Sequence record: NC_079184.1
Origin: Escherichia phage vB_EcoM_DE15
Reading direction: 5' to 3' (one strand)
Length of the DNA stretch: 53,998 nucleotides
In this document: one piece after another, positions 652-52,898 of the stretch
Numbering within the stretch: position 1 is the stretch's first letter
How the letters are laid out: each line of letters opens with the position of its first letter
Made by a program: the position numbers and the translations under genes
Notes under the pieces: generated by a model
Told to the model about the DNA's origin: nothing
Database searches by the model: none
What the model saw: only the letters and a program-made list of their open reading frames with translations

Positions 652-2592
652 ATGACTACTATCACCACTCAAACTATCAAATCCGTTGTTCCTGCTATCA
701 CTGCTCTGGTATACCGTGCCAAAGAGAAACAGAACTATATGCAGCCTCAGACTTGTGCTATTGCTGCCTTAGCCATCTTCAAGATGATGACGTCTTTCAC
801 TCGTGATGACGTTGTCCCTGCCATCGCGATGGTTGAACTGGCTTCTGCTTCTATTGCTGATGCCAACCGTTATAACAACGATTTGAAAGCAATGCACTAT
901 GTTGACCCAGCTATCAACCTCATTGGTCTGGCTAAGCACTTTGGCTTCATCACCATGAACGAAGACAAGTCATTCCAACAGACTGACACATGGGTTGAAC
1001 TGGTTACAACCAAAGACACCGCAGTGCCATTCACTGAGCGTGTTACATCTGAATCTCGTCGCAAGCCTTTCGTTAAAGGTGGCAAAGTTAAGCCATCCAA
1101 AACTCTGAAAGCTGCAATCGAATTCCTGCAAGATACTGAGTACCATGTGGAGACTGAGATGGTTCGCATCATCCAGTCCATGCTTGAGCAACGTACTTAT
1201 GGTGGCTTGCAGATGCCAGAAGCAATCCAGACTGAACTTCATGTTTGGAACAATGCTGTAGCAATGATGAATCAGGACACACTGTATTCTGACTACTTTG
1301 CTGACAACCGTGGTCGCCTGTATCATGTAGCATGTGCTGGTCCTAACCCACAATCTTCTGACTTTGCTCGTTGCTTGTATTCTCACAATGTTGAGAACAT
1401 CGTTAAGAAGTTTAACGAAGATGGTTCTACTACCATTGCATACAATATGTTCATGGCAGAACTGGAAGACATTTCCGGTGGTGAATGGTGCACTGCCAAG
1501 CGTTTGACTTATGTTGCTCAGAATCCAGCTGGTTCACTTGCTCGCATGATGAACATGCCTAAAGCTGAACGTCCTTCCAAGCCATTCACTTATGTTCGTC
1601 TGGCTCTGGATTGGTTCAAGTTTGAGACTACAGGTGAATGCGATTCTCGTGTAGGCTTTGGCTTAGATGCTAAATGTTCTGGTACTCAATATCTGGCATT
1701 CATTGCTGGCAATATGGAAATGGCTCGTGCAACAGGTCTGGTTGATTCTGAGACTAAAGCATCTGACCCATACCAGTTGAGTCTTCGTGAACTGTTGAAG
1801 CTGTTGGACAAGTCTTCAATGAAACCATCTCCTGAAATCATGGATGAATTCTTGAATCCGAAAGCTGGTCGTAAGTTTATCAAAACTCCGTACATGGCTA
1901 TTCAATATGGTGGTGGTAAAGCTGCACTAACTGGTTCATCTGACTTCATCAGCTACATGACGGAAGCTCTCCAGATTCCTATGGAGAAAGCTGAGGCATT
2001 TGCTGAACTGTGTGTAGAAGCAATCCATAACGCATTGGGTGCTAAGATTAACATGTTCATTGAGAAAGCTGCTGAGGCTGCATACAACCGTTGTGTTGAA
2101 CTCAACAAAGAGTACATCACATATCGTCACACTGATGGTCAGGTTGTAATGAAGCCTTGCTTCCCATCTCGTGAAATCTGTGAGGCATTCAGCATTCGTG
2201 TTGACAGCCAAACTCGTGTTATCTTTGGTCAGATTCAGGAGAATAAGCCTTGGACCATTCGTGAATCCAACCCAACTAAAGAAGAATTCAAGCGTACTTT
2301 CGTTGTTAACTACATTCAAGGTATTGACGCATTGGTTGCTCGTACTGTTGCAGTTAAAGCTAAAGAAGCTGGTCTTCGTGGTTTCACTTCAATCCACGAT
2401 TGTTTCCGTTGCTGTTTGGCAGATGCTCCACGTATGATGGAAGTTATTCGTGCAGCATATGTTGAAATCTTTGTAACCAACAATCAATTCGAGAATCTGT
2501 CTAAGCAACTTGGTGGCATTCAGATGTATCATGAGAACATCGTAACTGAAGAACTCCTGATGTCTGAACACGCTTACTACTTCTGTCAATAA
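652..2592 (+). CDS. Single-subunit (T7-type) DNA-dependent RNA polymerase, compact 646-aa form
   Basis: Motif A GLDAKCSGTQY (T7 DGSCSGIQH), motif B RKFIKTPYMAIQYGG (T7 RxxxKxxxxxxYG), motif C IHDCF (T7 HDSFG); only ~130 aa precede the palm region. Confidence 0.8.
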   Translation: MTTITTQTIKSVVPAITALVYRAKEKQNYMQPQTCAIAALAIFKMMTSFTRDDVVPAIAMVELASASIADANRYNNDLKAMHYVDPAINLIGLAKHFGFITMNEDKSFQQTDTWVELVTTKDTAVPFTERVTSESRRKPFVKGGKVKPSKTLKAAIEFLQDTEYHVETEMVRIIQSMLEQRTYGGLQMPEAIQTELHVWNNAVAMMNQDTLYSDYFADNRGRLYHVACAGPNPQSSDFARCLYSHNVENIVKKFNEDGSTTIAYNMFMAELEDISGGEWCTAKRLTYVAQNPAGSLARMMNMPKAERPSKPFTYVRLALDWFKFETTGECDSRVGFGLDAKCSGTQYLAFIAGNMEMARATGLVDSETKASDPYQLSLRELLKLLDKSSMKPSPEIMDEFLNPKAGRKFIKTPYMAIQYGGGKAALTGSSDFISYMTEALQIPMEKAEAFAELCVEAIHNALGAKINMFIEKAAEAAYNRCVELNKEYITYRHTDGQVVMKPCFPSREICEAFSIRVDSQTRVIFGQIQENKPWTIRESNPTKEEFKRTFVVNYIQGIDALVARTVAVKAKEAGLRGFTSIHDCFRCCLADAPRMMEVIRAAYVEIFVTNNQFENLSKQLGGIQMYHENIVTEELLMSEHAYYFCQ

Positions 2593-2600
2593 GAGAAACA

Positions 2601-2630
2601 GGGCTGGCAATAGCTGGCCCTATTCTTGTT
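2601..2630 (+). terminator. Hairpin (8-bp stem incl. 2 GU, AATA loop) followed by T-rich run after the RNAP gene
   Basis: GGGCTGGC-AATA-GCTGGCCC then TATTCTTGTT. Confidence 0.4.
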
Positions 2631-2693
2631 CATCAACAACTAAATCCCAATATTCAAGCAATATTGCTGCATGTAATATTGCTCCGATATTCG

Positions 2694-2714
2694 ACATTAG
2701 TTGGATATGAAGTA
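2694..2714 (+). promoter_or_regulatory. Phage promoter-like motif ACATTAGTTGGATATGAAG
   Basis: Member of recurring 20-nt motif family. Confidence 0.4.
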
Positions 2715-3670
2715 AAAGAATACGGAGAAATATTCCGCATGTCATGTTGAATCATTCTAGAAACATTCAGCATGTCAGCTTTGAGTTACAGCGTTGTAAT
2801 GATGTGGCAATCATTGAACTCCCTGGGAAGGCCACCTATAGTTCCAGCAACCATGACTTAGAGTAGGAATATCTATCCGAAACTTGGACTTCATTGTAGT
2901 TTGGTGTGCTTCATCGTGAGAAAGGTTGTGATAACTTTCGTAAGCAGGTGTTGAACTAACAACAGAACATCGTGTTAGCCATCTTGATTAAGTTACAAGA
3001 AAGTCAACAAATCAGCATGTCTATTAGTAACAATCTTGTTCCTTCTCCTATTATCAAGGCCCACCCACAAGCCGGGAGATAACTTTGACAAGACTGGAAC
3101 TTTTGGACATGCTTCTTTCTTTCTACAAGAATTCGAAAGAAGAGAAGAGTCGGAGCAAAGCCGCGAAACTAATCCCGTAGCCCGCCCCCGATTTTGAGCA
3201 ACAAATATTGTGACAATTGCGTCGCAGTATGGCATGTAAATATTGCTACAAATTGGCATGTTGGAATGTGGCAGAATTGTTAGAGGACTAATCACCTCGA
3301 AGATACAATCGTCTACCAATCTGGCATGTTAATTTTGTAACAGTATTTGTGCCAATTTCGCATGTAATAGTTGTATCAGTATTGACCCAATATTCTTGCA
3401 ACCCGCATGAATACTGGCTTCCAGCCAAGCGAAGGCTTTATCATCGCATGTAATATTGTGACAATATTGGGATAAAACCCTTTATTTAAATCATTTAGTT
3501 TATTAATTAAATGGTCGGTTTTCTGTACATAGGTATTCAACTGTTTGTGCCAAATACAAACAAGTTGGCTGCTTCTACAGAACTCCAGTGCTACAAATGT
3601 TCGTGCCAATCTGCTGCAATTTATCTCATTTGGCGGGGTAATATTGTATTAGGTTGGTACGTCATTATTT

Positions 3671-7785: not shown

Positions 7786-7826
7786 TTAACAATGGGCATC
7801 TTCTGTAGGTGTCCATGATTAATCCA

Positions 7827-7848
7827 ACATTAGTTGAATGTGAATAAC
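7827..7848 (+). promoter_or_regulatory. Phage promoter-like motif ACATTAGTTGAATGTGAATAAC
   Basis: Motif family member 18 nt upstream of next gene. Confidence 0.45.
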
Positions 7849-8432: not shown

Positions 8433-8810
8433 ATGGCACAATATTCAGATGTAAACACTGGCATTATCGGTCCTAACGGCTTCAAGAAAGACCCAAAACA
8501 TCCTGACATTCGTGGACGTATTAACGTTGACGGAATCTGGTATTGGGTATCTGGCTGGAATAAGCAAGCAAATGGTAATGAGTTTACCTCACTTGCATTG
8601 ACCATCATGACTCAGGAACAGGTTGATGAAATGATGCGTAAGCGTGAAGAGAAAGCTAAAGCCAAAGCTCAACCTCAAGCCGCTGCACAACAGCAACAGC
8701 AACGTCAGCAACCTTCTGCTGCACAGCAACAGCAAGCTCCTGCTCAACAACAGCAGGGTAATTACAATCCGAACGAGCCGAAAGGCTTCGACGACGACAT
8801 TCCATTCTAA
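8433..8810 (+). CDS. Small protein with Q/A-rich linker and C-terminal DDDIPF (host SSB acidic tip); SSB-like or SSB-tail mimic
   Basis: C-terminus NEPKGFDDDIPF matches the E. coli SSB tail; preceding low-complexity Gln-rich linker. Confidence 0.55.
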   Translation: MAQYSDVNTGIIGPNGFKKDPKHPDIRGRINVDGIWYWVSGWNKQANGNEFTSLALTIMTQEQVDEMMRKREEKAKAKAQPQAAAQQQQQRQQPSAAQQQQAPAQQQQGNYNPNEPKGFDDDIPF

Positions 8811-12274: not shown

Positions 12275-12343
12275 TTCCAGGCGGGTTTCTTCGAAGTGCC
12301 AAGCGGGTTTTGTACTCGCATTGGCCTTCGGCTTTAGTCTGAA

Positions 12344-12364
12344 ACATTAGTGGGATTTGATTCT
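12344..12364 (+). promoter_or_regulatory. Phage promoter-like motif (first of three in tandem)
   Basis: ACATTAGTGGGATTTGATTC. Confidence 0.4.
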
Positions 12365-12494
12365 GACCACTTAGGGAAGAAAGGCATTATACACTTATCG
12401 CCAAATGGGTGTCAAGCACTTTCTTCATTTATTTTAATTTATTCTTATTATTCTTTTTGTTTGGAATATTGGAATAATTCTGAAACATTAATTG

Positions 12495-12516
12495 GAATTG
12501 AATTAGTGTAATTCTG
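12495..12516 (+). promoter_or_regulatory. Phage promoter-like motif (second of three)
   Basis: ACATTAATTGGAATTGAATTAG, preceded by a 70-nt AT-rich tract. Confidence 0.4.
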
Positions 12517-14551: not shown

Positions 14552-14580
14552 GTCGTTTGTCGAATCAGAGCAGTTCTGAA

Positions 14581-14601
14581 ACATTAGTTGGATGTGGAAA
14601 G
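14581..14601 (+). promoter_or_regulatory. Phage promoter-like motif ACATTAGTTGGATGTGGAAAG
   Basis: Motif family member. Confidence 0.45.
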
Positions 14602-14675: not shown

Positions 14676-15014
14676 ATGGCTAAGATTGTAACCGTAACTC
14701 AGTACGAAGCTAACGATGGTTCCCTGTTCCTGACCGAAGCAGAGTGTAATGCACATGACTTCAAACTGGAAAACGGTGCTAAAATTGAGAAAGCTGCCGA
14801 AGCGTACCTGAACACCGTTGGCGCTATCGACCGTTCTCGCTCCATGCAGAAGAACACCATCGAGCAGTTCCTGGCATTCTACCTGCCGTGGGTTGAAGCT
14901 GGTGAGCCGGAAGTTGAGCGTACTAAGTTCGATACTCCGAAAGAAGCTAAAGTTGCTGACGCAAGTGTTGCCGAAGCTGCCGAAGCTGCTGTTGAAGAAG
15001 CTCCGGTATTCTAA
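14676..15014 (+). CDS. Acidic protein (112 aa) with host-like high-expression codon usage
   Basis: CTG/CCG/CGT-rich codons unlike neighbours; Ala/Glu-rich C-terminus. Confidence 0.5.
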   Translation: MAKIVTVTQYEANDGSLFLTEAECNAHDFKLENGAKIEKAAEAYLNTVGAIDRSRSMQKNTIEQFLAFYLPWVEAGEPEVERTKFDTPKEAKVADASVAEAAEAAVEEAPVF

Positions 15015-16104
15015 GTTGCCGATGGCAAACTTGAGAGACTAAGCTAAATCGATCTGGCATGCACTGGAAGATTTCCGGTGCTGCCTTGAACCCATTCTGA
15101 AAGGAAGAGTGGGCTTCAATGAGCATTCTTGTGATTAGAGTTGGGAGGTAGGCCGATGCCCAAGCTCATGGCCCAGACAAGAGTGTTCATTGAAGTTACT
15201 TCAATATGGATTGTCGCCAAGTTGTGGAAGGACGTGCACACAGATTTAACGAAGAAAAGTAACAGCCTGAGAACTGTGAAAATTTCCCGTTATGTCGTGG
15301 GGAAGTGCACCATAGCTTGGGTTCTTCACGTAGATATTACTCAGATATTTGCGGCTCGCTGAATGTGAGCATCCATATTGAAGTAGTTTTCTGAGTCTTA
15401 CGACGGGCCTAAACTGCCTGAAGTTATTGCGACTGTTTTATTCATTTAAAATAAATGCAAATGATTCTGAAATGCGAGTTGCGGCTTAATTAAATTTAAG
15501 TCCTCTCCGTGGTCTTCCAATCCCACGTAACCAAATTTGGCGCATTGTGGCTTCGAGATGTGATTAATAAATCGGAGCAATAATTAATTTGTATTCTGCG
15601 ATGCAATGCAGGCTTAAGTCCCTCAGTGCGCGTGGGGATGTGACAGAGTACAAACTTAATTATGCAGTTGGATATTTCTAGAGGACGGACGAGCACACTG
15701 GAATGTCTTCAATTGGTTTAGTGTGAGAAGCTATGCCAATATGAAACGTAACTCCTTGGGGAAGTGCTCCTCTGGATTTCCCTCCACACAGGAATCTCAA
15801 GCCTGTGGCAGCGACTTCGAAGCTGCACTGCGTAACCTAAATTCACCCTAAAGTGAGTTGCCCTGAGTATGGAAATAAACTGCTCATAACCGATGGTATC
15901 TACAAAGGTAGATTAAATCAGGTTGCCTGTTGGTACTTGGGTTCAACACCTGCTTGCACTCGCAAAGTAGTGCCTCGTACCTGAGATGAAGTGAGTCGGG
16001 ACCATCAATCCCACGTTATGTCAAAACACAGTAGGCGGCTCACGGATTCTACAAGCCTCGCAGTTCGGGAAAACCTGCGTTATCAAAACCCCCCTCTTTT
16101 ATTT

Positions 16105-16196
16105 GGACGAGTAGCTCAGAAGGTTTGCATTGTGCTCAGTCAGGTAGAGCAATCTGTTCGACAGATGTGTCGTTGGTTCGAATCCAACCTCGTCCA
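16105..16196 (+). tRNA. tRNA-like gene (anticodon loop GUUCGAC, anticodon UCG, Arg) carrying a 20-nt insertion in the D-loop; possibly pseudo-tRNA
   Basis: Acceptor GGACGAG/CTCGTCC, TA at 8-9, D-stem GCTC/GAGC, T-arm GTTGG-TTCGAAT-CCAAC, discriminator A; D-loop 29 nt with duplicated GCTCAG. Confidence 0.4.
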
Positions 16197-16228
16197 CCCA
16201 CTTTAATAATAGCAATACTGGAGTCCTT

Positions 16229-19030: not shown

Positions 19031-20794
19031 ATGAACGTCAAGCAATGTGTGGCTAAGATTAAGCACGATGTACCAGACTGTAAATCCACATCTGGCAAGT
19101 CTTTACAGGTTTGGTTGAATGTCGATGAAGCTGGTAATAAGAACTTCTCTGGTTACTGCTTTGCGTGTGGCGTTCTAGTACCAAATCCTTATGGCAATAA
19201 TCCGGAGAACATTCCAGAGATTAAAGTCAAAACTCCAGAAGAAATTCAGGAAGAAGTTGATGAAATCACTGCTTGTCCTCCGTTTGATTTAACCCATCGC
19301 AGCATTGAGCCGGAGTTCTGGAAAGCTGCTGGTGTTCGACTTCTGTATTCAGAGTATGATGGTAAGACTCCAAATGCTCTGGCACATGGCTACACCAAAA
19401 ATGGTAAACTTGTTCGTTGGAAGATTAAACTTCTGAACAAGAAAGTTATGTGGTCCGTTGGCGACACCCAGGGTAACGACCCTTACAACTGGATGGCTGC
19501 AAAAGCAATTGGCGGTAAGACACTGTTCATCACAGAAGGTGAAGAAGACTGTATCGCATTGCGTCAAATCCTCAAAACCATGAACCGTGGTGGTGCATAT
19601 GAAGATTTGGATTTTGCTGTAATTAGTTTGAGTGACGGGAGTGATTCCGTACACAAATGTTTGTCACCAGTTGCAGAAGAAATTAAGCAACGTTGGGAGC
19701 AGGTTGTTATTGTATTTGATGACGATGAACCTGGACGTAAAGCTGCAAAAGAAGCATGCCGATTGTTGCCTGGTGCAATGATTGCAACTCTTCCGGCTAA
19801 CGATGCCAACGATTGTTTGAAGCGTGGCTTGCTCAAAGCTACTCAATCTGCTGTTGTATTCCGTGCTGCTCGTCCTCTACCTACAGCACTTGTCAATAAA
19901 GAACTTCTTATGGAAGAACTTGATGATGAGGTTGAACAAGGTGTGGACTATCCTTGGCCCAAGTTAACCGACTTAATGTTTGGTCAACGTCGAGCCGAAG
20001 TTATTACAATCGGTGGTGCAGAAGGTGGTGGTAAAACTACGCTGTCCCGTCAGATTGTGCATCACAACATTACCAAGCATGATTGGGGAGTGTTTACTGC
20101 ATACATGGAGGAAACTCCTACAGAAACATTGCGCCGAATGGCTGGCCTCAATGACAACTTGCCATATTGGGAGCCTGCGTTTACTCGTGAAGACCCTCGA
20201 TATGATGAAGCTAAGTTCCGTCAAACTGCTGCGAAGATGCTTCGTAACATGGAGATTTGGGACCGCAAGCAAGCTGGAGAAGACCCTTATGAAACCTGGG
20301 ATGGGTTAAAGACGATTCTTCGTCAGATTGGACCAGACATTGATATGTTTGTCCTTGATAACTTAACCTACTTATCGGAAGGGATTTCTGCCTCAGAGAA
20401 GAACGACTTCTTAGGTAAGCTGTATGCAGATATTACTAAGCTGGCAGACCAATATCAGTTCCATGTAAATATTCTGTCGCACCTTAACCCTGTGGCAAAA
20501 GGTCAACGACCTCATGAGGATGGTGGACGTATTAAGAAGTCAGACTTTACTGGCTCCCGTGCTGCTGCTAAGTATTCTCATGGTATGTTCGGCTTTGAGC
20601 GTAATAGCCAGGCAGTTGACCCAAACTGTTCTATCATTCGTTCTATTAAGGCTCGTAAGAGTGGTAAAACAGAAGGCTTCAAAACGTACTACGACACCGA
20701 ATCTGGTCGAATCATTCAACGTTCTTGGGATGACTCGCTGTTCGAAACTAAAGAGATTGTTCAACTTACCAAGAAGAACGGTCCTCATCAATAA
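19031..20794 (+). CDS. DNA primase/helicase (T7 gp4-like)
   Basis: N-terminal Cys zinc finger, TOPRIM FITEGEEDCIAL, Walker A GGAEGGGKTT. Confidence 0.85.
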   Translation: MNVKQCVAKIKHDVPDCKSTSGKSLQVWLNVDEAGNKNFSGYCFACGVLVPNPYGNNPENIPEIKVKTPEEIQEEVDEITACPPFDLTHRSIEPEFWKAAGVRLLYSEYDGKTPNALAHGYTKNGKLVRWKIKLLNKKVMWSVGDTQGNDPYNWMAAKAIGGKTLFITEGEEDCIALRQILKTMNRGGAYEDLDFAVISLSDGSDSVHKCLSPVAEEIKQRWEQVVIVFDDDEPGRKAAKEACRLLPGAMIATLPANDANDCLKRGLLKATQSAVVFRAARPLPTALVNKELLMEELDDEVEQGVDYPWPKLTDLMFGQRRAEVITIGGAEGGGKTTLSRQIVHHNITKHDWGVFTAYMEETPTETLRRMAGLNDNLPYWEPAFTREDPRYDEAKFRQTAAKMLRNMEIWDRKQAGEDPYETWDGLKTILRQIGPDIDMFVLDNLTYLSEGISASEKNDFLGKLYADITKLADQYQFHVNILSHLNPVAKGQRPHEDGGRIKKSDFTGSRAAAKYSHGMFGFERNSQAVDPNCSIIRSIKARKSGKTEGFKTYYDTESGRIIQRSWDDSLFETKEIVQLTKKNGPHQ

Positions 20795-20859: not shown

Positions 20860-22794
20860 GTGTTGTATCCTTGGGAAAACATGTACGCCAGTGACATTGA
20901 AACAACTGGCCTGTTGGAGCAAATGCGTAAGCAAGCTGCACCACGTCTTCACAACATTGGATATATTGATGTTCTGACTCGTGAAGAAACTGTAATAGAG
21001 TGGACCGACAGAAAATCTATCCAAGCATTTCTGGATACAGGCCCAACATTAATCATGCACAACGGCGCAACCTTTGACTTTGAAGCACTGAGGTTCCTAG
21101 GCTACGACGTTTCAAAATGTACACTAATTGATACTTTGTTTATCAGTTGGTATCTGCAACCTCGTCGTGTTAAGCACGGCTTAGAAGGTTACGGCGAAGA
21201 GTTTGGTGTGCCAAAACCAGTCATTGAAGATTGGGAAAATCAAACTCAAGAAGAGTACAACCATCGTGTGATGGAAGACTGCAAGATTCAGTTGAAGCTG
21301 TGGGAACAGCAATACATTCAACTCTTGAAGATTTATAAATCTCCTAGCGAAGTTAAGCGCTTCGTTGAATATCTGATGACAAAAGCTCGTCAACAAGTTA
21401 TTCAACAACGTACTCGCTGGAAGCTGAACATTGAGAAGGCATTGGCGTTTAAGGCCAAGCTGGAGCCAATGATTAAAGAGAAGACGGACGCATTGGAAGC
21501 ATCAATGCCGCGTGTTCCGGAATACGTTATCAAAACCCGTCCAGCTAAATGCCACAAGATGAACGGGCAACTGTCTGCCACTGGAATTAAGTGGAAGGCC
21601 ATTTGTGATGCAAACGGTTTGGACTGGAAAGACCCAGACTTAGCTATCAAGGTTCTTAAAGGCTATAAGAAGCCTAATGCTGGTTCACATGTTCAAATTA
21701 AAGATTGGTTGTTCAGCTTAGGCTGGGAACCAGAAACCTTTAAGTTTGACCGTAATAAGGAAACAGGTGAAACTCGCCAGATTCCACAAATCACTGTGAA
21801 GGATGAGGATGGCAATCCTGAAATATGTCCGAGCTTGCATAAGCTGGCGGAAAGAAACCCCGACTCTGGTATTCAACATCTTATTGGGATGGGCGTGTAT
21901 AAACACCGTCTGTCTGTTGTTAATGGCTTCCTTCGCGACGTCGATGAAGATGGGTTCCTTACTGCACGATGCGGTGGCCTTACCAATACTTTACGCCTTA
22001 AACATCGCGAACTTGTTAACCTCCCTTCTATTCGTGTATTTGGCGGTGAAGAACTGCGTTCAATGTTGGAAGCGTGGCGCGAAGACTACGAACAGTTAGG
22101 CTCTGACTTGTGTTCTCTGGAAGACCGCTGTAAGCACCACTTCCAGTGGATGTATGACCCTGAATACGTTAAGAAGCAGTTGGCACCAGACTATGATGCT
22201 CACCTTGCAATTGGCGTGATTGGTGGATTCATTACTGAACAAGAATCCCAGGACCACAAGGACGGAATTAAGAAGTGTAAACAACGTCCAATGTTTAAGA
22301 CCACAAACTATGCTTGTCAGTATGGTGCTGGTGTACCAACTGTAGCTCGTTCTGCTGGCTGTGACCAGACTACTGCTGCACGACTGCATAAAGCATATTG
22401 GGACTTGAACTGGTCTATTAAAGAGATTGCTGCAAACACTAAAGTGGTAACAATTGATGGTCAGATGTGGCAACAGAATCCAGTAAACAAATTCTGGTAT
22501 TCACTGCGTACAGAGAAAGACCGCTTCTCCACATTGTGTCAGGGTACTGGTGCATATGTGTTTGATGTTTGGTGCAACAACATCATTGCAATTTGTAATG
22601 AACGTTGGGGCTGTGACCCACTTCTGTCCGGACAATTCCACGACGAATTGATTCTCCAAGTTAAGAAAGGTTTCCGTGATTTGTGGACGGACTTGCTTAA
22701 TGAGGCAATGGACCGAACCAACAAAGAACTTAAACTTAACCGTGATTGTGCATGTGATGTGCAGTTCGGTGATAACTACGCGGAGATTCACTGA
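20860..22794 (+). CDS. Family A DNA polymerase with 3'-5' exonuclease domain (644 aa)
   Basis: Exo I DIETTGL; motif B KQRPMFKTTNYACQYGAG; motif C QFHDELIL. Confidence 0.8.
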   Translation: MLYPWENMYASDIETTGLLEQMRKQAAPRLHNIGYIDVLTREETVIEWTDRKSIQAFLDTGPTLIMHNGATFDFEALRFLGYDVSKCTLIDTLFISWYLQPRRVKHGLEGYGEEFGVPKPVIEDWENQTQEEYNHRVMEDCKIQLKLWEQQYIQLLKIYKSPSEVKRFVEYLMTKARQQVIQQRTRWKLNIEKALAFKAKLEPMIKEKTDALEASMPRVPEYVIKTRPAKCHKMNGQLSATGIKWKAICDANGLDWKDPDLAIKVLKGYKKPNAGSHVQIKDWLFSLGWEPETFKFDRNKETGETRQIPQITVKDEDGNPEICPSLHKLAERNPDSGIQHLIGMGVYKHRLSVVNGFLRDVDEDGFLTARCGGLTNTLRLKHRELVNLPSIRVFGGEELRSMLEAWREDYEQLGSDLCSLEDRCKHHFQWMYDPEYVKKQLAPDYDAHLAIGVIGGFITEQESQDHKDGIKKCKQRPMFKTTNYACQYGAGVPTVARSAGCDQTTAARLHKAYWDLNWSIKEIAANTKVVTIDGQMWQQNPVNKFWYSLRTEKDRFSTLCQGTGAYVFDVWCNNIIAICNERWGCDPLLSGQFHDELILQVKKGFRDLWTDLLNEAMDRTNKELKLNRDCACDVQFGDNYAEIH

Positions 22795-23039
22795 TGCGTG
22801 TTCTGGCAGTATACGACCTTCATGGTCAACAACTTTATCAAGCGGCTGGAGATGTTCCGGCCACAGAATTGGCGTTGTCTTTAGTTGAGATGCACGCTTT
22901 GGCATTATTTGGTGATGGGTTTACAGACAACTCTGTCTATAAAGCCACAATTAAATCGTTGAAGGAATCAAAAGATTTCTCCGACACTCAATCAATCCTG
23001 TCCAGCGTGGATATGGATTCTCACATTATTGAAATTTAA
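22794..23039 (+). CDS. Hypothetical protein (81 aa)
   Basis: ORF overlapping polymerase stop (TGATG). Confidence 0.45.
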   Translation: MRVLAVYDLHGQQLYQAAGDVPATELALSLVEMHALALFGDGFTDNSVYKATIKSLKESKDFSDTQSILSSVDMDSHIIEI

Positions 23040-23050
23040 AGGTACTCAAA

Positions 23051-23917
23051 ATGGCATTTGCTGCTCCTACACTGGCCTCGAACAAGACTCCTTCTGCTGC
23101 ACCATTACTGGAAGCGGGTGGTTATCCTGCTCGTGTTTGCCGTATTATCGACCTGGGCTTACAGCCTGGTTCTGCTAAATATCCTACTCCGTCCCTGAAA
23201 CTTCTGGTGACTTTCGAACTGCTCGACGAGTACATGAAAGAAGTTGACGGTGAGGGCAAAATGGTCATGGTTCAAGACCCAGACGAAGATGACGGCATCA
23301 TGATGGCGAAGAATCTTGAAGACAAGCCGCGTTGGTTTGACTTTGAGTTTACCTATAATGCTGACGGCTTCATGGGTGAGAACTCCCACATCTACAAATT
23401 CGCTAAGGCGATTGATGCACTGGAAGTTAAACCTAACCTGGAACAAGGCATTCAGGGCCATCCTGCCAAGAACCTGCCGGACTGGTTGGGCGAACCTCTG
23501 ATTGTTGGCATTGTTCAATATACCAAGCAGTCAGGTAAGAATGCTGGTCAGGTTGCGAACAAAGTTGCTACCTTCTCCCCGATGAAGTCTAAAGAGAAGA
23601 AAGAAGCTAAAGCCCTGGTTAACCCGACTGTCTTCTTTGACATGTCCGAGCCGGACTTAGAAGTATTCAACAAACTGCCAGGTGGCGAATCTCCGTATGC
23701 AATCAAGAACCGTATTACTTCCGGTGTTGATTTCTACAAGACTAAGCTGTCTGCACTGTTAGGCGGTAAACCTGCCGATGAAGGTGCTGTACCGAATCAG
23801 GCCTCTGATGAAGAAGTTGATGCAGCTATGAAAGCTGAACTGGAAGCACAGGCTGCTGCAAAAGCACAGCGTGAAGCGGAAGGTGGTGCTGCTGGCGGTA
23901 CGGGTATGCCGTTCTAA
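23051..23917 (+). CDS. Highly expressed 288-aa protein of replication module; possible ssDNA-binding protein
   Basis: Host-like codon usage; acidic Ala-rich C-terminal region ending in Phe; position between polymerase and exonuclease. Confidence 0.3.
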   Translation: MAFAAPTLASNKTPSAAPLLEAGGYPARVCRIIDLGLQPGSAKYPTPSLKLLVTFELLDEYMKEVDGEGKMVMVQDPDEDDGIMMAKNLEDKPRWFDFEFTYNADGFMGENSHIYKFAKAIDALEVKPNLEQGIQGHPAKNLPDWLGEPLIVGIVQYTKQSGKNAGQVANKVATFSPMKSKEKKEAKALVNPTVFFDMSEPDLEVFNKLPGGESPYAIKNRITSGVDFYKTKLSALLGGKPADEGAVPNQASDEEVDAAMKAELEAQAAAKAQREAEGGAAGGTGMPF

Positions 23918-23927
23918 TTATAAATAT

Positions 23928-23951
23928 GGCTCCTTCGGGAGCCTTTAATTT
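23928..23951 (+). terminator. Perfect UUCG-tetraloop hairpin (GGCTCC-TTCG-GGAGCC) followed by TTTAATTT
   Basis: Read directly from sequence; sits 11 nt after the upstream stop. Confidence 0.55.
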
Positions 23952-23964
23952 GGAGCTTACCAAA

Positions 23965-24987
23965 GTGAGTAAGAAACGAGTTTTGTTGCTGGTTGACGGC
24001 GACATGGTTGCATTCAGTCACTGTGCTGCTGAGGAATACGGCAAAGATTCAGAAGATATTAACTTTGCTAAGATTCAAATGTCAATGGATTCCAAGATGG
24101 AATTCCTTGCGAAACGTGTAGGAGCTACAGAAGTAGTTACCTGCATTTCACCATCCAAAACATTCCGTAACGTTCTCGCCGAGAATTACAAAGGCAATCG
24201 TGATGACGTATGGCGACCAGAAAACTTGAAGAATGCGAAAGCACATCTTATGGTTGCCTGGAACGGTGTATGGATGAAAGGTCTGGAAGCAGATGACCTT
24301 CTTGCTGTATTCGCACGTCATGAATACGAAATGACAATGGGTAAACGTAATGAGATTAAGAGCCTCAAGCGCATTGGTCCTTGCACATATGATGAAGTCT
24401 GGATTGCGTCGTTGGACAAAGACTTGCGACAAATCGGGCAGAACGGTAGTGTTGGTCCAGTAATTAAACATTATCAATGGGAACGAGAAACCCAGGGTAT
24501 TGGTGAGAAGGTTGTAACTCCGAAGGATTACGGCGAACTCAAACTAATCATCAAGGACAATGGCAAGTCGAAGAAGAAAGAAGTTAAGGGCAATGGCCCT
24601 AAATTCTTCTTGCATCAATTGCTTATTGGCGACTCAACGGATAACGTTATGGGTTGCGGAGTTCTTGAAGAAAGAATTTACAAAACTGGTGCCAAAGCCG
24701 GAGAAACTTATTTCCGTCGTGATGGCATTGGTGCAGTTGCTTCATTCGAAATGCTGGATGGTACAACATCCTATGCAGAAGGTTTGAAGAAAGTTATTGG
24801 TGCATACATTATGCGCTTCGGAGATGGTTGGGAACAAGAGCTGCTCAAAGTGGGCCGTCTTGTTTACATGCACCATCAAATTGAAAAGGGTAATTGTGTT
24901 CGCTTGTGGCATTACAAGAACATTAACGAATACTTTGACCTTAAAGAGAATCGTATCCTCACTCAAGAAGAGTACCTCCAGAAATAA
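23965..24987 (+). CDS. 5'-3' exonuclease (FEN / T7 gp6-like); GTG start after hairpin (ORF track ATG 23926)
   Basis: LLLVDGDMVAF N-terminal acidic motif; GGAG RBS before GTG 23965. Confidence 0.7.
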   Translation: MSKKRVLLLVDGDMVAFSHCAAEEYGKDSEDINFAKIQMSMDSKMEFLAKRVGATEVVTCISPSKTFRNVLAENYKGNRDDVWRPENLKNAKAHLMVAWNGVWMKGLEADDLLAVFARHEYEMTMGKRNEIKSLKRIGPCTYDEVWIASLDKDLRQIGQNGSVGPVIKHYQWERETQGIGEKVVTPKDYGELKLIIKDNGKSKKKEVKGNGPKFFLHQLLIGDSTDNVMGCGVLEERIYKTGAKAGETYFRRDGIGAVASFEMLDGTTSYAEGLKKVIGAYIMRFGDGWEQELLKVGRLVYMHHQIEKGNCVRLWHYKNINEYFDLKENRILTQEEYLQK

Positions 24988-32920: not shown

Positions 32921-33394
32921 ATGCCAAAGCAAGATTGGTCTATTAATACTGGTGAAGCATATGCAGGTGAACAATATGGCCTGGCTACCACCAACTCCCA
33001 GCGCCTGACCTACGTTGCCGAAGAAGAAATGGCAAACTTTGGTCTGGCTGTTGTTCAGGGCACGGCCTCTAATCAGGTTAAACCTGGTATTGAAGCAGAC
33101 GGCACTGTTCTGGGCATTACCATGCGCCAGATTAACATCGAATCAGCCACTCGTCCTGGTGACGGTACTGTTGCTATTAAAGTTGGCTGGCCTCTGGGCG
33201 TTATGCTGTCTGGCCCAATCATGGTCAAACTGAAAACCGCAATCACCGATAAAGACATTGGCGTATCTGACACTGGTCAATTTGGTGGCGTTGGTGCTGG
33301 CTATACTAAAGCAACCAACCTGACTGCACTTCGTTATCCGGCTGCTGCTGGTGATGTTGTTCCGGTAATGATTAACGTAGTCCCAAAGCCGTAA
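32921..33394 (+). CDS. Head structural / decoration-like protein (157 aa), highly expressed
   Basis: Host-like codon usage; slippery CCCAAAG 6 codons before stop. Confidence 0.5.
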   Translation: MPKQDWSINTGEAYAGEQYGLATTNSQRLTYVAEEEMANFGLAVVQGTASNQVKPGIEADGTVLGITMRQINIESATRPGDGTVAIKVGWPLGVMLSGPIMVKLKTAITDKDIGVSDTGQFGGVGAGYTKATNLTALRYPAAAGDVVPVMINVVPKP

Positions 33395-34024: not shown

Positions 34025-35032
34025 ATGCCTAAGATGATTAAACTGGCGGACGGTTCTGAATTCGAACTGAACGACGCTATCACCCGTATTCAGGATTCTG
34101 GCACTGTTGTCCTGAATGACGACGATGCAGTATTCTTTCAACGCCAGCTTGAGTACATTGAAGCTCAAACTTACGACACTCTGTATCCAGAACTGGAAGC
34201 TCGTGCTGCTTTCGGTGTGGACACTACTGGTGGTGCTGGCGTAAACACTCTGACCTACCGTTCTTACAACCATGTTGGTAAAGCTCAGGTAATTAACGCC
34301 CGTGCAACCGACCTGCCTAAATCCAGCATTTCTGGTAAAGAATACAGTATCCCTGTTAAATCTGTTGGTACTGCATTCGACTACGATATTGATGAAGTGG
34401 CATCCGCTGCTGTTACTGGCCTCCCGCTGGAAACTCGTAAAGCAAATGCTGCTATTCGTGGTTACGAACAGTATGTTAACTCTGCTGCATGGTACGGCGA
34501 TAAAGCTAACGGCTTTGTTGGCTTCTTCGAAAACCCAGACATTACCAAAGCAACTGTTGCTCAGGGTGCTGGCGGTTCTACCAAGTGGGCCGAAAAGACC
34601 CCGACCGAAGTTATTGCTGACCTGACTGCTGCTGTGTCTGCAATGTATGCTTCTACTCTGAAAATCATGCGCCCGGACGAAATCTGGATGCCTGTCGAGC
34701 ATGAGCAGTACATCTTCAACACTGCACGTTCTGAGCAGTCTGACAAGACGATTGGTCAATTCTTCATTGACAACAACCAGTTCATCAACTCCCGCGATAA
34801 AATCAAGGGTCTGAACGCAATCAAAGGCCATGGCGATTCTGGTTCTGATTGCTTCGTCGTTGTTTGCCGCAATGCAATGGGCAACCGTACTTTCCGTCTG
34901 CGTGAGCCTCTGCCGCTGACCTGGCAACCAGTACAGCTTCATGGCCTGGTTTATGAAGTTCCTGGCCGTGGTCGTTTCGCTGGCTTCCAAGCGATGTATC
35001 CGGCAGCAATCTCCATCAACTCCGGCATCTGA
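34025..35032 (+). CDS. Major capsid protein (putative)
   Basis: 335 aa, host-like codon usage, position after scaffold; ATG 34025 preferred over TTG 33992. Confidence 0.65.
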   Translation: MPKMIKLADGSEFELNDAITRIQDSGTVVLNDDDAVFFQRQLEYIEAQTYDTLYPELEARAAFGVDTTGGAGVNTLTYRSYNHVGKAQVINARATDLPKSSISGKEYSIPVKSVGTAFDYDIDEVASAAVTGLPLETRKANAAIRGYEQYVNSAAWYGDKANGFVGFFENPDITKATVAQGAGGSTKWAEKTPTEVIADLTAAVSAMYASTLKIMRPDEIWMPVEHEQYIFNTARSEQSDKTIGQFFIDNNQFINSRDKIKGLNAIKGHGDSGSDCFVVVCRNAMGNRTFRLREPLPLTWQPVQLHGLVYEVPGRGRFAGFQAMYPAAISINSGI

Positions 35033-43068: not shown

Positions 43069-43078
43069 GCTTACTTTA

Positions 43079-43099
43079 ACATTAGTTGAATATGTATTA
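43079..43099 (+). promoter_or_regulatory. Phage promoter-like motif ACATTAGTTGAATATGTATT upstream of baseplate genes
   Basis: Motif family member. Confidence 0.45.
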
Positions 43100-52343: not shown

Positions 52344-52898
52344 ATGCTATCATTCAAAGTTCTTGCACTTCTGACAGCTTTAGTTCACATCAACGCCCCA
52401 GCTTCGGTTGGGGCAGTGAATTCTGCTATTACAGATTTTGCAAGTCATTCCTATTTAAATGGAAGTCTGAAATTATCTTCTTCACAACGCAAAGAGCTAG
52501 AATGCTACACTAAAGTAATCTGGTACGAAGCTCGCGGAGAAGACAAACATGGAAAGATTCTGGTAGCTAATGTCGTCCGTAATAGAACAGAGTTCGGGAA
52601 GCCATTCGCTAACACCGTTTGTAATGTTGTCTATCAACGCAATCAATTTGCATGGACACGAGAAGCAAAGAAGAAGAATGCTCAATGGAAGCATGTAGCA
52701 AAGATTAATTATGCCACAGAACAACAACAAGTTCTGGACACCATTAATGTTGCAATCTCTTTTGTACTATTTAATCAACCCTCTGTCACCAAAGCAACTC
52801 ACTTTTGTACAGCATCGGAGAAGTGCAACTTCAAGAATGTCAAAGGTCTGGGACGTTATGGTGGCCATAAATTCTATGAGTATCTAGGAAATCTGTAA
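52344..52898 (+). CDS. SleB-type cell wall hydrolase with N-terminal signal/SAR-like segment (endolysin candidate)
   Basis: [21 protein letters not shown] matches the SleB/Hydrolase_2 core; N-terminal [25 protein letters not shown]. Confidence 0.65.

Follow-up and report, generated by a model that had tools for sequence, protein, structure and literature searches.

Introduction

[quoted passage not shown] T7 gp2.5 (DUF2815/PF10991) ends in ...EADEDGDF. A further group of phage proteins, the DUF669 family, has been predicted to consist of SSBs and includes the SSB of HK620 (PMC4889955), which binds ssDNA in vitro (PMC5928155). HK620 SSB ends in ...NDYPPF.

We analysed a stretch of 53,998 nucleotides (the window; Escherichia phage vB_EcoM_DE15, NC_079184.1), which represents a complete Carltongylesvirus genome of about 54 kb (Chaseviridae, phiEcoM-GJ1 group). 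One of its genes most likely encodes a phage SSB:

23051..23917, + strand: CDS of 288 aa, proposed replicative ssDNA-binding protein; homologue of phiEcoM-GJ1 gp39 ('hypothetical protein')

Gene order and current annotation

The 288-aa protein of the window is 99% identical to gp39 of GJ1 and ST32. Its gene is placed between those of the DNA polymerase and the 5'-3' exonuclease, an order conserved in Chaseviridae and Zobellviridae. The wider arrangement of primase-helicase, PolA, (small ORF), 288-aa gene and FEN exonuclease was found in both Chaseviridae subfamilies as well as in Zobellviridae. In the window the primase-helicase lies at 19031-20794 and the DNA polymerase at 20860-22794. Every phage record examined labels the protein 'hypothetical'; a Pfam search gave no match for it, and its PHROG (862) is described as 'unknown function'. 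In Aeromonas phage pAh6.2TG the homologue from this family is accompanied by no other annotated SSB.

A search upstream of 23051-23917 for 'promoter 8', which precedes the gene in phiEcoM-GJ1, showed that it is absent in the window, because the window has a different gp38 allele, common to Shigella phage 2KOFFS. Between positions 14580 and 43078 of the window no recognisable phage promoter was detected.

Predicted fold and structural matches

The AlphaFold2 model of the 288-aa protein (pLDDT 88.7) displayed an OB topology of the order beta1-beta2-beta3-alpha-beta4-beta5:

23117..23578, + strand: predicted OB-fold core, residues ~23-176 (AlphaFold model)

The modelled core is a five-stranded beta-barrel (beta1 23-38, beta2 48-63, beta3 88-102, beta4 149-158, beta5 168-176) with a helix (113-120) between beta3 and beta4 and a lineage-specific beta-hairpin insert at residues 73-86. 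The best matches among solved structures were SSB-type OB folds, comprising PrgE, PriB, bacterial SSBs and RPA. Foldseek placed PrgE at the top (E 2.4e-3, probability 1.0), with PriB and numerous bacterial SSBs behind it; the structural neighbours of the model in BFVD included proteins labelled DUF669 (E about 2e-5). The conserved family residues Y25, R28, K92, R94 and W95 are compatible with ssDNA binding, without proving it.

Sequence profiles did not link the family to T7 gp2.5, N4 SSB or HK620 SSB. The family profile retrieved nothing from the PDB chains at E <= 10, and ten distant representatives of the family, scanned against Pfam, matched neither DUF669 nor any other informative model. 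One of 57 family members touched Pfam DUF669 (PF05037; E 0.0046), a model that HK620 SSB itself did not match in the Pfam copy used. Alignment of the family profile by hhalign showed no similarity to T7 gp2.5 (probability 1% or less) and no signal with N4 gp45 alone, 37 N4-SSB relatives or HK620 SSB (probability <=1%). All 80 HK620-SSB loci detected in viral contigs were 87-100% identical.

The C-terminal tail

23768..23914, + strand: C-terminal tail, residues ~240-288, with a flexible linker, an Ala-rich amphipathic helix (253-276) and a disordered tip ...GTGMPF

This subdivision is based on predicted secondary structure and on the low pLDDT at the protein ends. The C-terminus of the window protein reads ...EAEGGAAGGTGMPF. 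Its family comprises 4271 clusters (about 4300 at 50% identity), and an acidic tail with a terminal aromatic residue is a family-wide feature, as in known SSBs. The C-terminal residue is F, W or Y in 86% of the full-length family members (213/248), an aromatic residue lies within the last three positions in 239 of these 248, and some members end with DDDIPF, like E. coli SSB. The initial annotation had described an acidic, Ala-rich tail ending in Phe, similar to those of SSBs. The terminal Phe, the Ala-rich helix and the family-wide signature bear this out, whereas the acidity is weak in the window copy: its last 25 aa carry a net charge of -1, compared with a family mean of -4.5, and its last 60 one of -4 (whole-protein pI 4.86).

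Relationship to NCBIfam NF046043

Comparison with NCBIfam models pointed to another function. NF046043, named 'phage replication initiation protein, NGO0469 family', aligned with residues 18-210 of the window protein at 61.6 bits (E 6.5e-17). This falls under the curated cut-off of 75 bits, which is why the protein remains 'hypothetical' in annotations. Relatives from Zobellviridae and metagenomes exceed the cut-off with 90-118 bits; individual scores were 118 for O4 gp40, 112 for P0100 and 96.8 bits for KpnP_VR7901 gp32.

These matches, and the location of 23051-23917 within the replication module, would agree with an origin-binding or primase-like protein that functions in phage replication initiation and is not a general SSB. 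We consider this very unlikely. The family name appears to derive from a 2007 annotation of NGO0469 for which we found no experiment, and which was built on weak BLAST matches of 26-32% over 87-109 residues to nanovirus Rep and a phage primase (PMC1931599). The model of the 288-aa protein has an OB fold and contains no HUH, AAA+, primase or winged-helix domain, and acidic tails tipped by an aromatic residue are characteristic of SSBs. Initiators are moreover low-abundance proteins, whereas 23051-23917 shows a capsid-like codon adaptation.

Codon usage

The initial annotation had noted host-like high-expression codons, unlike those of their neighbours, in 23051-23917 and in three further genes:

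34025-35032: major capsid protein, high-CAI gene
32921-33394: capsid cement protein, high-CAI gene
14676-15014: 112-aa protein with no known function, high-CAI gene; its C-terminus EEAPVF resembles the host SSB tip

We calculated the codon adaptation index (CAI) over the 84 ORFs of the window, using the E. coli w-values of Sharp & Li. These four genes occupied ranks 1-4 with values of 0.71, 0.61, 0.57 and 0.53, the last being that of 23051-23917. Its neighbours (DNA polymerase, gp38, exonuclease, HNH) reached 0.26-0.35. A principal component analysis of RSCU values, which uses no external weights, agreed with this result: 23051-23917 was second of 58 genes on PC1, behind the major capsid protein, and PC1 was driven by CTG, CGT, TCT, ACT, GCT, CCG and GGT. 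Codon usage supports the view that 23051-23917 is highly expressed, with a codon adaptation comparable to that of the capsid proteins.

A structural or virion role, as the codon bias might suggest, was rejected on the grounds of the conserved position in the replication module and the OB fold. The homologue from phage 4HA13 is not in the published proteomics list, which takes only proteins with at least 50% coverage; its absence argues neither way.

For an SSB, the codon bias would be explained by demand, since such a protein would be required in stoichiometric rather than catalytic amounts. The OB-fold core would coat ssDNA at the replication fork, and the flexible tail with its aromatic end (here MPF) would dock on the phage DNA polymerase or primase-helicase. 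We propose this docking by analogy. The predicted OB fold, the SSB-type structure matches, the tail signature of the family and the conserved position between polymerase and exonuclease together favour an SSB-like protein, as the initial annotation had suggested.

A second SSB-annotated protein

The window encodes another protein to which an SSB function has been assigned:

8433-8810: 125-aa protein that ends with DFDDDIPF and is annotated as SSB in relatives

Division of labour between the two proteins was considered, with the 288-aa protein acting mainly as a single-strand annealing or recombination mediator paired with the adjacent 5'-3' exonuclease, and the 8433-8810 product as the replicative SSB. 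The 288-aa gene lies directly 5' of the exonuclease gene in all relatives, the T7 record annotates gp2.5 as an ssDNA-binding and ssDNA-annealing protein, and the 4HA13 homologue of the small protein is abundant enough to be detected, at 62% coverage, in MS of a virion preparation. The small protein, however, resembles E. coli SSB only in residues 132-178, which represent linker and tip, and no recognised SSB domain was found in its 60-aa N-terminal domain. Its 58 matches were all located on Cleopatravirinae-sized contigs, whereas the 288-aa family also occurs in lineages with neither the small protein nor another annotated SSB. SSB and annealing roles can also coexist. A predominantly annealing function of the 288-aa protein seems distinctly unlikely to us, and we retain its proposed assignment as the replicative SSB.

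The hairpin downstream of the 288-aa gene

23928..23943, + strand: hairpin of a 6-bp stem and a C(UUCG)G tetraloop, placed at the 3' end of the SSB-like gene
23944..23951, + strand: T-rich tract TTTAATTT (putative terminator U-tail), directly after the hairpin, 6 U in 8 nt

The hairpin (GGCUCC-UUCG-GGAGCC) begins 10 nt past the TAA of 23051-23917; all six pairs of its stem are perfect, five being G-C, and its folding energy is about -11 to -12 kcal/mol. On the + strand of the genome only one other C(UUCG)G hairpin has 6 or more pairs. A G+C-rich hairpin followed by a U-rich tract on the coding strand, downstream of a stop codon, corresponds to the layout of an intrinsic terminator; the U-tract is interrupted (UUUAAUUU). 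A consensus terminator scan taken alone was not above chance (12 sites versus 10.1 expected in 12 kb), but the 47-nt intergenic stretch folds better than its shuffles (z = -3.5). Rfam gave no match at the hairpin, its only match in the window being a tRNA.

Comparison of related phages revealed an identical hairpin in GJ1, 2KOFFS, MLP1, PYps23T and 4HA13; in phiA050, PM1, Y2 and PA_03 its place is taken by hairpins that differ in sequence (-17 to -19 kcal/mol). Altogether, hairpins of unrelated sequences occupy this position in six lineages, with intergenic folding z values of -2.1 to -5.6. A run of T comes after the hairpin in 4HA13, phiA050, PM1 and Y2 as well. In 4HA13 and PYps23T extra genes are inserted downstream and the hairpin still stays with the 288-aa gene; the 4HA13 record contains a rho-independent terminator, called by ARNold, at the equivalent hairpin.

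This pattern suggests that the hairpin most likely works as a leaky intrinsic terminator, protects the 3' end of the mRNA, or does both. In each case more SSB would be made relative to the exonuclease encoded downstream. With its short stem and interrupted U-tract the hairpin might terminate weakly or not at all, and termination must be leaky if the downstream genes need read-through, since no recognisable phage promoter lies in the surrounding 14580-43078 region.

The start codon of the exonuclease

The annotated ATG of the exonuclease overlaps the hairpin:

23926..23928, + strand: ATG, exonuclease start in some records, probably not the start codon; without an upstream Shine-Dalgarno sequence, and the hairpin stem begins with its G
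23952..23955, + strand: GGAG, predicted Shine-Dalgarno sequence of the exonuclease gene, with a 9-nt spacer to GTG 23965
23965..24987, + strand: 5'-3' (FEN-type) exonuclease, restarted at GTG; 340 aa, begins (M)SKKRVLLLVDGD

Records for this gene currently use three different start codons. GTG 23965 is the only one present and in frame in all eight genomes compared. One extra T puts ATG 23926 out of frame in phiEcoM-GJ1, and in MLP1 this triplet reads ATT. In Erwinia phage Y2 the alternative TTG does not share the exonuclease frame. In Proteus phage PA_03 a stop codon lies in frame 21 nt before the GTG, and the interval contains no other start. A GGAG followed after 9-10 nt by GTG is conserved in the window, GJ1, 2KOFFS, MLP1, phiA050, PM1 and Y2; PA_03 has GGGA. 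Profile alignments agree with this start. Position 2 of Pfam 5_3_exonuc_N (PF02739) aligns with residue 20 counted from the ATG, or residue 7 counted from the GTG; in the latter numbering, positions 1-5 of the NCBIfam 5'-3' exonuclease and PolI models fall on residues 3-7. The two starts predict different N-terminal peptides, (M)SKKRVLLLVDGDMVAFSH... for GTG 23965 and MAPSGAFNLELTK... for ATG 23926; the published 4HA13 proteomics gives no N-terminal exonuclease peptide.

These comparisons support translation of the exonuclease from GTG 23965, 39 bases later than usually annotated, and not from the ATG buried in the hairpin. The GGAG just after the hairpin would drive it. Both the perfect tetraloop hairpin overlapping the annotated ATG and the GTG start had been proposed in the initial annotation; the overlap was confirmed in the sequence, and the GTG start is supported by the comparison of genomes.

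A chance palindrome or a translational device, with the ATG or TTG before GTG 23965 as genuine start, would agree with the terminator scan at chance level, with the z of -1.5 obtained for a 91-nt fold and with the published use of ATG 23926 (SA91KD, 2KOFFS) or TTG 23950 (GJ1, ST32, MLP1). It is, however, difficult to reconcile with unrelated hairpins at one position in six lineages, with a hairpin that keeps its place behind the 288-aa gene even where a different gene follows, or with the loss or frameshift of ATG and TTG in at least one relative each, PA_03 permitting GTG only; we regard it as highly improbable. Overall, it appears probable that 23051-23917 encodes a replicative SSB, that the gene is closed by a hairpin acting as leaky terminator or 3' protector, and that the exonuclease is translated from GTG 23965.

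Implications for phage annotation

Should the family prove to be SSBs, the T7-like replication modules of Chaseviridae, Zobellviridae and related phages would gain the SSB that they now seem to lack, and renaming could extend to thousands of database entries. A broader proposal, which we think doubtful, is that this family, at present unnamed or mislabelled as a replication initiation protein, is a separate line of phage OB-fold SSBs that has gone unrecognised and that supplies the replisome SSB missing from Chaseviridae, Zobellviridae and other podophage groups; in Cleopatravirinae it may act together with the two abundant small proteins ending in DDDIPF (8433-8810) and EEAPVF (14676-15014) to capture or out-compete host SSB-interacting proteins. 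A recent preprint reports that some anti-phage defence systems sense viral SSB-bound ssDNA (bioRxiv 10.64898/2026.02.22.705581), and the identity of the SSB gene would aid the interpretation of defence escape mutants. The exonuclease start and the probable terminator are small, concrete annotation corrections that apply genus-wide. The value of these results lies in annotation, as the biology will not surprise a specialist.

Comparison with known systems

The hairpin resembles intrinsic terminators and stabilising C(UUCG)G hairpins in its G+C-rich stem, its extra-stable tetraloop and the U-tract right after the stop codon; compared with typical intrinsic terminators, its stem is short (6 bp) and its U-tract interrupted. 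Some twenty sites of this kind carry an annotation in the close relative SA91KD. C(UUCG)G hairpins also recur between T4 genes, as reportedly described by Tuerk et al. in 1988.

The replication module itself is similar to that of T7, both phages having a T7-type single-subunit RNA polymerase, a primase-helicase, a PolA-type polymerase and a FEN exonuclease; the phage RNA polymerase of the window is encoded at 652-2592. T7 gp2.5 and the window protein share an OB-fold core, predicted in the latter, and a tail ending with Phe, and their sizes are similar (232 versus 288 aa). A dedicated phage promoter lies just upstream of the gene in T7 (phi2.5) and in phiEcoM-GJ1 ('promoter 8'), whereas the window lacks it.

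Like the proposed SSB family of the window, the DUF669-type SSBs (HK620 HkaK/SSB and, distantly, N4 gp45) are phage-only, highly diverged OB-like proteins which are missed by standard SSB profiles. Their genes usually lie beside sak4, whereas those of the window family lie between PolA and the FEN exonuclease, and the N4 family ends with ...SLFGKK, with no terminal aromatic residue. NF046043 shows true sequence homology with the window protein, and its name conflicts with the evidence from fold and tail. PrgE of plasmid pCF10 and the bacterial SSB and PriB proteins differ from the window protein in sequence (identity ~10%); compared with these, its predicted core is far larger (~155 aa, with the lineage-specific insert), and an additional helical region (residues 180-236) lies behind it.

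Gene neighbourhood

The window is essentially the complete genome of a phiEcoM-GJ1-like myovirus (Chaseviridae, Cleopatravirinae, Carltongylesvirus) and carries all its genes on the + strand. The region 22700-24300 showed 97-98% identity to phiEcoM-GJ1, ST32 and SA91KD in the parts that aligned, which made up about 85% of the query; against Shigella phage 2KOFFS the identity was 93% and the alignment spanned the whole region. Genes in this neighbourhood are ordered as follows:

19031-20794, +, primase-helicase
20860-22794, +, DNA polymerase
22794-23039, +, 81-aa ORF
23051-23917, +, 288-aa ORF, homologue of phiEcoM-GJ1 gp39
downstream, +, in this order: 5'-3' exonuclease, HNH endonuclease, DNA ligase, dUTPase

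The order primase-helicase, PolA, (small ORFs), 288-aa-type gene and FEN exonuclease is found in both Chaseviridae subfamilies and in Zobellviridae, and the gp39 homologue is labelled 'hypothetical protein' in all phage records examined.

Family, predicted fold and C-terminal tail of the 288-aa protein

Sequence libraries are uninformative or misleading on this protein. Searches revealed no match in Pfam or, by sequence, among PDB chains, and its family is PHROG 862, 'unknown function'. The NCBIfam model NF046043 ('phage replication initiation protein, NGO0469 family') was hit with an E-value of 6.5e-17 and 61.6 bits, below its cut-off of 75 bits; the cut-off is exceeded by Zobellviridae relatives (Pseudomonas phage O4 gp40, Klebsiella phage KpnP_VR7901 gp32) and by metagenome relatives. 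The name 'replication initiation protein' dates from the 2007 annotation of the Neisseria prophage gene NGO0469, for which the basis was similarity to a nanovirus Rep (26% identity over 109 aa) and to a phage primase (32% over 87 aa; PMC1931599), and we found no experimental support for it. The family comprises 181 matches in a 90%-clustered database and 4271 cluster representatives (E <= 1e-3) in an exhaustive search. One protein from the family search (P0257, 379 aa) matches only profile positions 86-209 and also hits the protein kinase and PAS domains of Pfam; it could represent a gene fusion or a chimeric gene prediction.

A confident AlphaFold2 model built from a 57-sequence alignment (mean pLDDT 88.7, pTM 0.76) predicted an OB fold in residues 23-176, with the canonical order beta1-beta2-beta3-helix-beta4-beta5, with a lineage-specific beta-hairpin insert at residues 73-86. 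Beyond this core the model places a small helical region (180-236) and, after a flexible linker, an Ala-rich helix (253-276) that leads into a disordered tip. [quoted passage not shown] Among predicted viral structures it matched uncharacterised proteins of many podophages and proteins labelled DUF669, a family that Kazlauskas et al. (PMC4889955) linked to the N4 SSB and proposed to consist of SSBs with acidic tails; the DUF669 protein HkaK of HK620 is an SSB according to in-vitro analyses (Hutinet et al., PMC5928155). Profile comparison did not bear this link out: hhalign of the family against N4 gp45, an N4-SSB alignment, the HK620 SSB and T7 gp2.5 gave no signal, and Pfam DUF669 was touched by only one of 57 family members. 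By the same comparison the 288-aa protein does not group with the T7 gp2.5 family.

The C-terminus is F, W or Y in 213 of 248 full-length family members; an aromatic residue lies within the last three positions in 239, and the mean net charge of the last 25 residues is -4.5. In some members the C-terminus reads ...EDDDIPF, matching the tip of E. coli SSB, and T7 gp2.5 (...EADEDGDF) and the HK620 SSB (...NDYPPF) are likewise Phe-tipped. The initial annotation had described an acidic, Ala-rich tail ending in Phe. The terminal Phe and the Ala-rich, amphipathic helix are present and an aromatic end is a family-wide feature, but the acidity of the window copy (net -1 over 25 aa) is weaker than the family norm. 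Fold, tail and neighbourhood suggest that the 288-aa protein probably functions as an SSB, with presumed roles in ssDNA binding and partner docking.

A second protein of the genome is labelled SSB in relatives:

8433-8810, +, 125-aa protein

Only its P/Q-rich linker and DFDDDIPF tip resemble bacterial SSB, where they match residues 132-178 of the E. coli protein; in the first 60 residues, four strands precede a long helix. The protein could be a mini-SSB, or it could imitate the host SSB tip and serve as a decoy for host proteins that bind there. The 4HA13 homologue was detected by mass spectrometry of CsCl-purified virions with 62% coverage. The family seems confined to Cleopatravirinae, with matches restricted to contigs of Cleopatravirinae size. 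Lineages without it would still need an SSB. Beside the gp39 homologue, the record of Aeromonas phage pAh6.2TG contains no annotated SSB in 65 features, a weak indication given its sparse annotation.

Codon usage

Four genes, including the SSB-like one, had been proposed to use host-like high-expression codons. Exactly these four rank highest among 84 ORFs by codon adaptation index (CAI; E. coli relative adaptiveness after Sharp & Li 1987, absolute values approximate):

14676-15014, +, CAI 0.71, rank 1
34025-35032, +, major capsid gene (identity by Pfam), CAI 0.61, rank 2
32921-33394, +, capsid cement protein gene (identity by Pfam), CAI 0.57, rank 3
23051-23917, +, SSB-like gene, CAI 0.53, rank 4

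Neighbouring genes gave 0.35 (DNA polymerase), 0.29 (gp38), 0.33 (exonuclease) and 0.26 (HNH). A principal component analysis of relative synonymous codon usage in 58 genes, which depends on no reference weights, agreed: on PC1 (20% of variance) 23051-23917 came second only to the major capsid protein, with 14676-15014, 32921-33394, the RNA polymerase and two genes taken as tail sheath and tube next in order. Positive loadings were carried by CTG, CGT, TCT, ACT, GCT, CCG and GGT, the classic E. coli high-expression codons. High expression of 23051-23917 is suggested as strongly as sequence alone permits.

The gene with the highest CAI, 14676-15014, encodes a 112-aa protein (PHROG 17419, without known function there) whose acidic tail reads ...AVEEAPVF; a phage promoter of its own (14580-14597) serves the gene, and hairpins lie 3' of it. 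Three proteins of the genome have Pro-x-Phe-type C-termini (DDDIPF, EEAPVF, GTGMPF), the first two preceded by clearly acidic residues. ARAGORN detected a tRNA-Leu(CAG) gene at 16104-16200 (+; Rfam tRNA 45.2 bits), whose codon CUG is the one most enriched in highly expressed genes. The SA91KD record lists no tRNA feature at the equivalent place, and the 4HA13 paper reported no tRNA genes.

A hairpin behind the SSB-like gene

23928-23943, +, hairpin GGCTCC-TTCG-GGAGCC

This hairpin starts 10 nt past the TAA stop and is followed directly 3' by TTTAATTT. Its 6-bp stem is perfect and capped by a C(UUCG)G tetraloop, with a folding energy of about -11 to -12 kcal/mol. It is the perfect tetraloop hairpin noticed initially, and it does overlap the annotated exonuclease ATG at 23926. 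Only two C(UUCG)G hairpins with at least six pairs occur on the coding strand of the genome; the other (52395-52414, +, 8-bp stem) lies within ORF 52344-52898, in a signal-peptide-like stretch, and is probably incidental. A consensus terminator scan by itself gave no enrichment over shuffles (12 sites versus 10.1 expected) and the 91-nt fold was ordinary (z -1.5); the 47-nt intergenic segment was far more structured than shuffles (z -3.5).

We compared the gp39-exonuclease junction across twelve relatives. The same hairpin sequence is present in phiEcoM-GJ1, 2KOFFS, MLP1, PYps23T and 4HA13, and in the 4HA13 record it is labelled a rho-independent terminator (ARNold). Since it stays directly 3' of the gp39 homologue in 4HA13 and Yersinia phage PYps23T, which carry an extra gene between hairpin and exonuclease, it belongs to the upstream gene. 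Hairpins of wholly different sequence occupy the same place in phiA050 (Aeromonas), PM1 (Pectobacterium), Y2 (Erwinia) and PA_03 (Proteus), with -17.6 to -19.1 kcal/mol, usually a T-run, and intergenic z-scores of -3.5 to -5.6. Nefertitivirinae (pAh6.2TG, SppYZU05, VPs20) have no hairpin at this junction. Conservation of position without conservation of sequence argues for a functional RNA element, and we regard action at the transcript level as quite likely.

The inserted genes lie at 2408-2836 of the PYps23T locus (L013) and 2485-3033 of the 4HA13 locus (L010). The former begins with an ATG immediately downstream of the same GGAG motif and is labelled 'baseplate wedge protein', which, judged by its position, looks like a misannotation.

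The exonuclease start codon

No Shine-Dalgarno sequence precedes the ATG at 23926, which overlaps the stem; for the GTG at 23965, GGAG stands 9 nt upstream. Eight genomes have the exonuclease directly behind the gp39 homologue, and in all of them a GTG precedes x-K-K-(R/K)-V-L-L-L-V-D-G-D, with GGAG (GGGA in PA_03) 9-10 nt before it. One extra T in the T-run puts the ATG out of frame in phiEcoM-GJ1, and MLP1 has ATT in its place. The TTG used as start in the phiEcoM-GJ1, ST32 and MLP1 records is just part of the T-run plus GGAG, and in Y2 it is not in frame; in PA_03 an in-frame TAA stands 21 nt before the GTG, with no start codon between. Position 2 of Pfam 5_3_exonuc_N aligns at residue 20 of the ATG form, residue 7 from the GTG, and positions 1-5 of the NCBIfam 5'-3' exonuclease and PolI models align at residues 3-7 of the GTG form. 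Because genome comparison and profile alignments concur, we place the start at GTG 23965, as initially proposed; on this sequence evidence it is very likely correct. In PM1 the annotated start (position 3401 of its locus, L005) is a GTG inside that phage's own terminator hairpin, and the conserved GGAG-N9-GTG lies 45 nt downstream, an over-extension as in the window.

Promoters and read-through

The gp39 gene of phiEcoM-GJ1 and SA91KD is preceded, at a distance of about 60 nt, by a phage-type promoter (consensus around CATTAGTTGGAT); T7 gene 2.5 also has its own promoter. This 'promoter 8' is absent upstream of 23051-23917 because the preceding 81-aa gene is a different allele, unlike that of phiEcoM-GJ1 and SA91KD and common to 2KOFFS. 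The consensus has seven matches in the window, against 0.06 expected by chance:

567-584, +, promoter match
2693-2710, +, promoter match
7826-7843, +, promoter match
12343-12360, +, promoter match
12484-12501, +, promoter match
14580-14597, +, promoter match
43078-43095, +, promoter match

No recognisable phage promoter occurs between 14580 and 43078, which leaves the replication genes and the majority of structural genes without such a promoter of their own. If downstream genes rely on read-through, the many hairpins in this interval, including 23928-23943, would have to be leaky.

Proposed role and relation to known systems

Our explanation, which we consider reasonably probable as a whole, is that the 288-aa protein would be the replicative SSB, made in large amounts through codon optimisation. 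The stable tetraloop hairpin and U-tract would close its message as a leaky terminator, a 3' protector or both, stepping expression down ahead of the catalytic exonuclease, which would be translated from GTG 23965. The gain is for annotation: the family is large and at present unnamed or probably misnamed, and public records give three competing starts for the exonuclease gene. Apart from the start correction, the elements would be of known kinds: a phage SSB of the OB-fold type, here divergent, with an acidic tail tipped by an aromatic residue, and an ordinary terminator-type hairpin.
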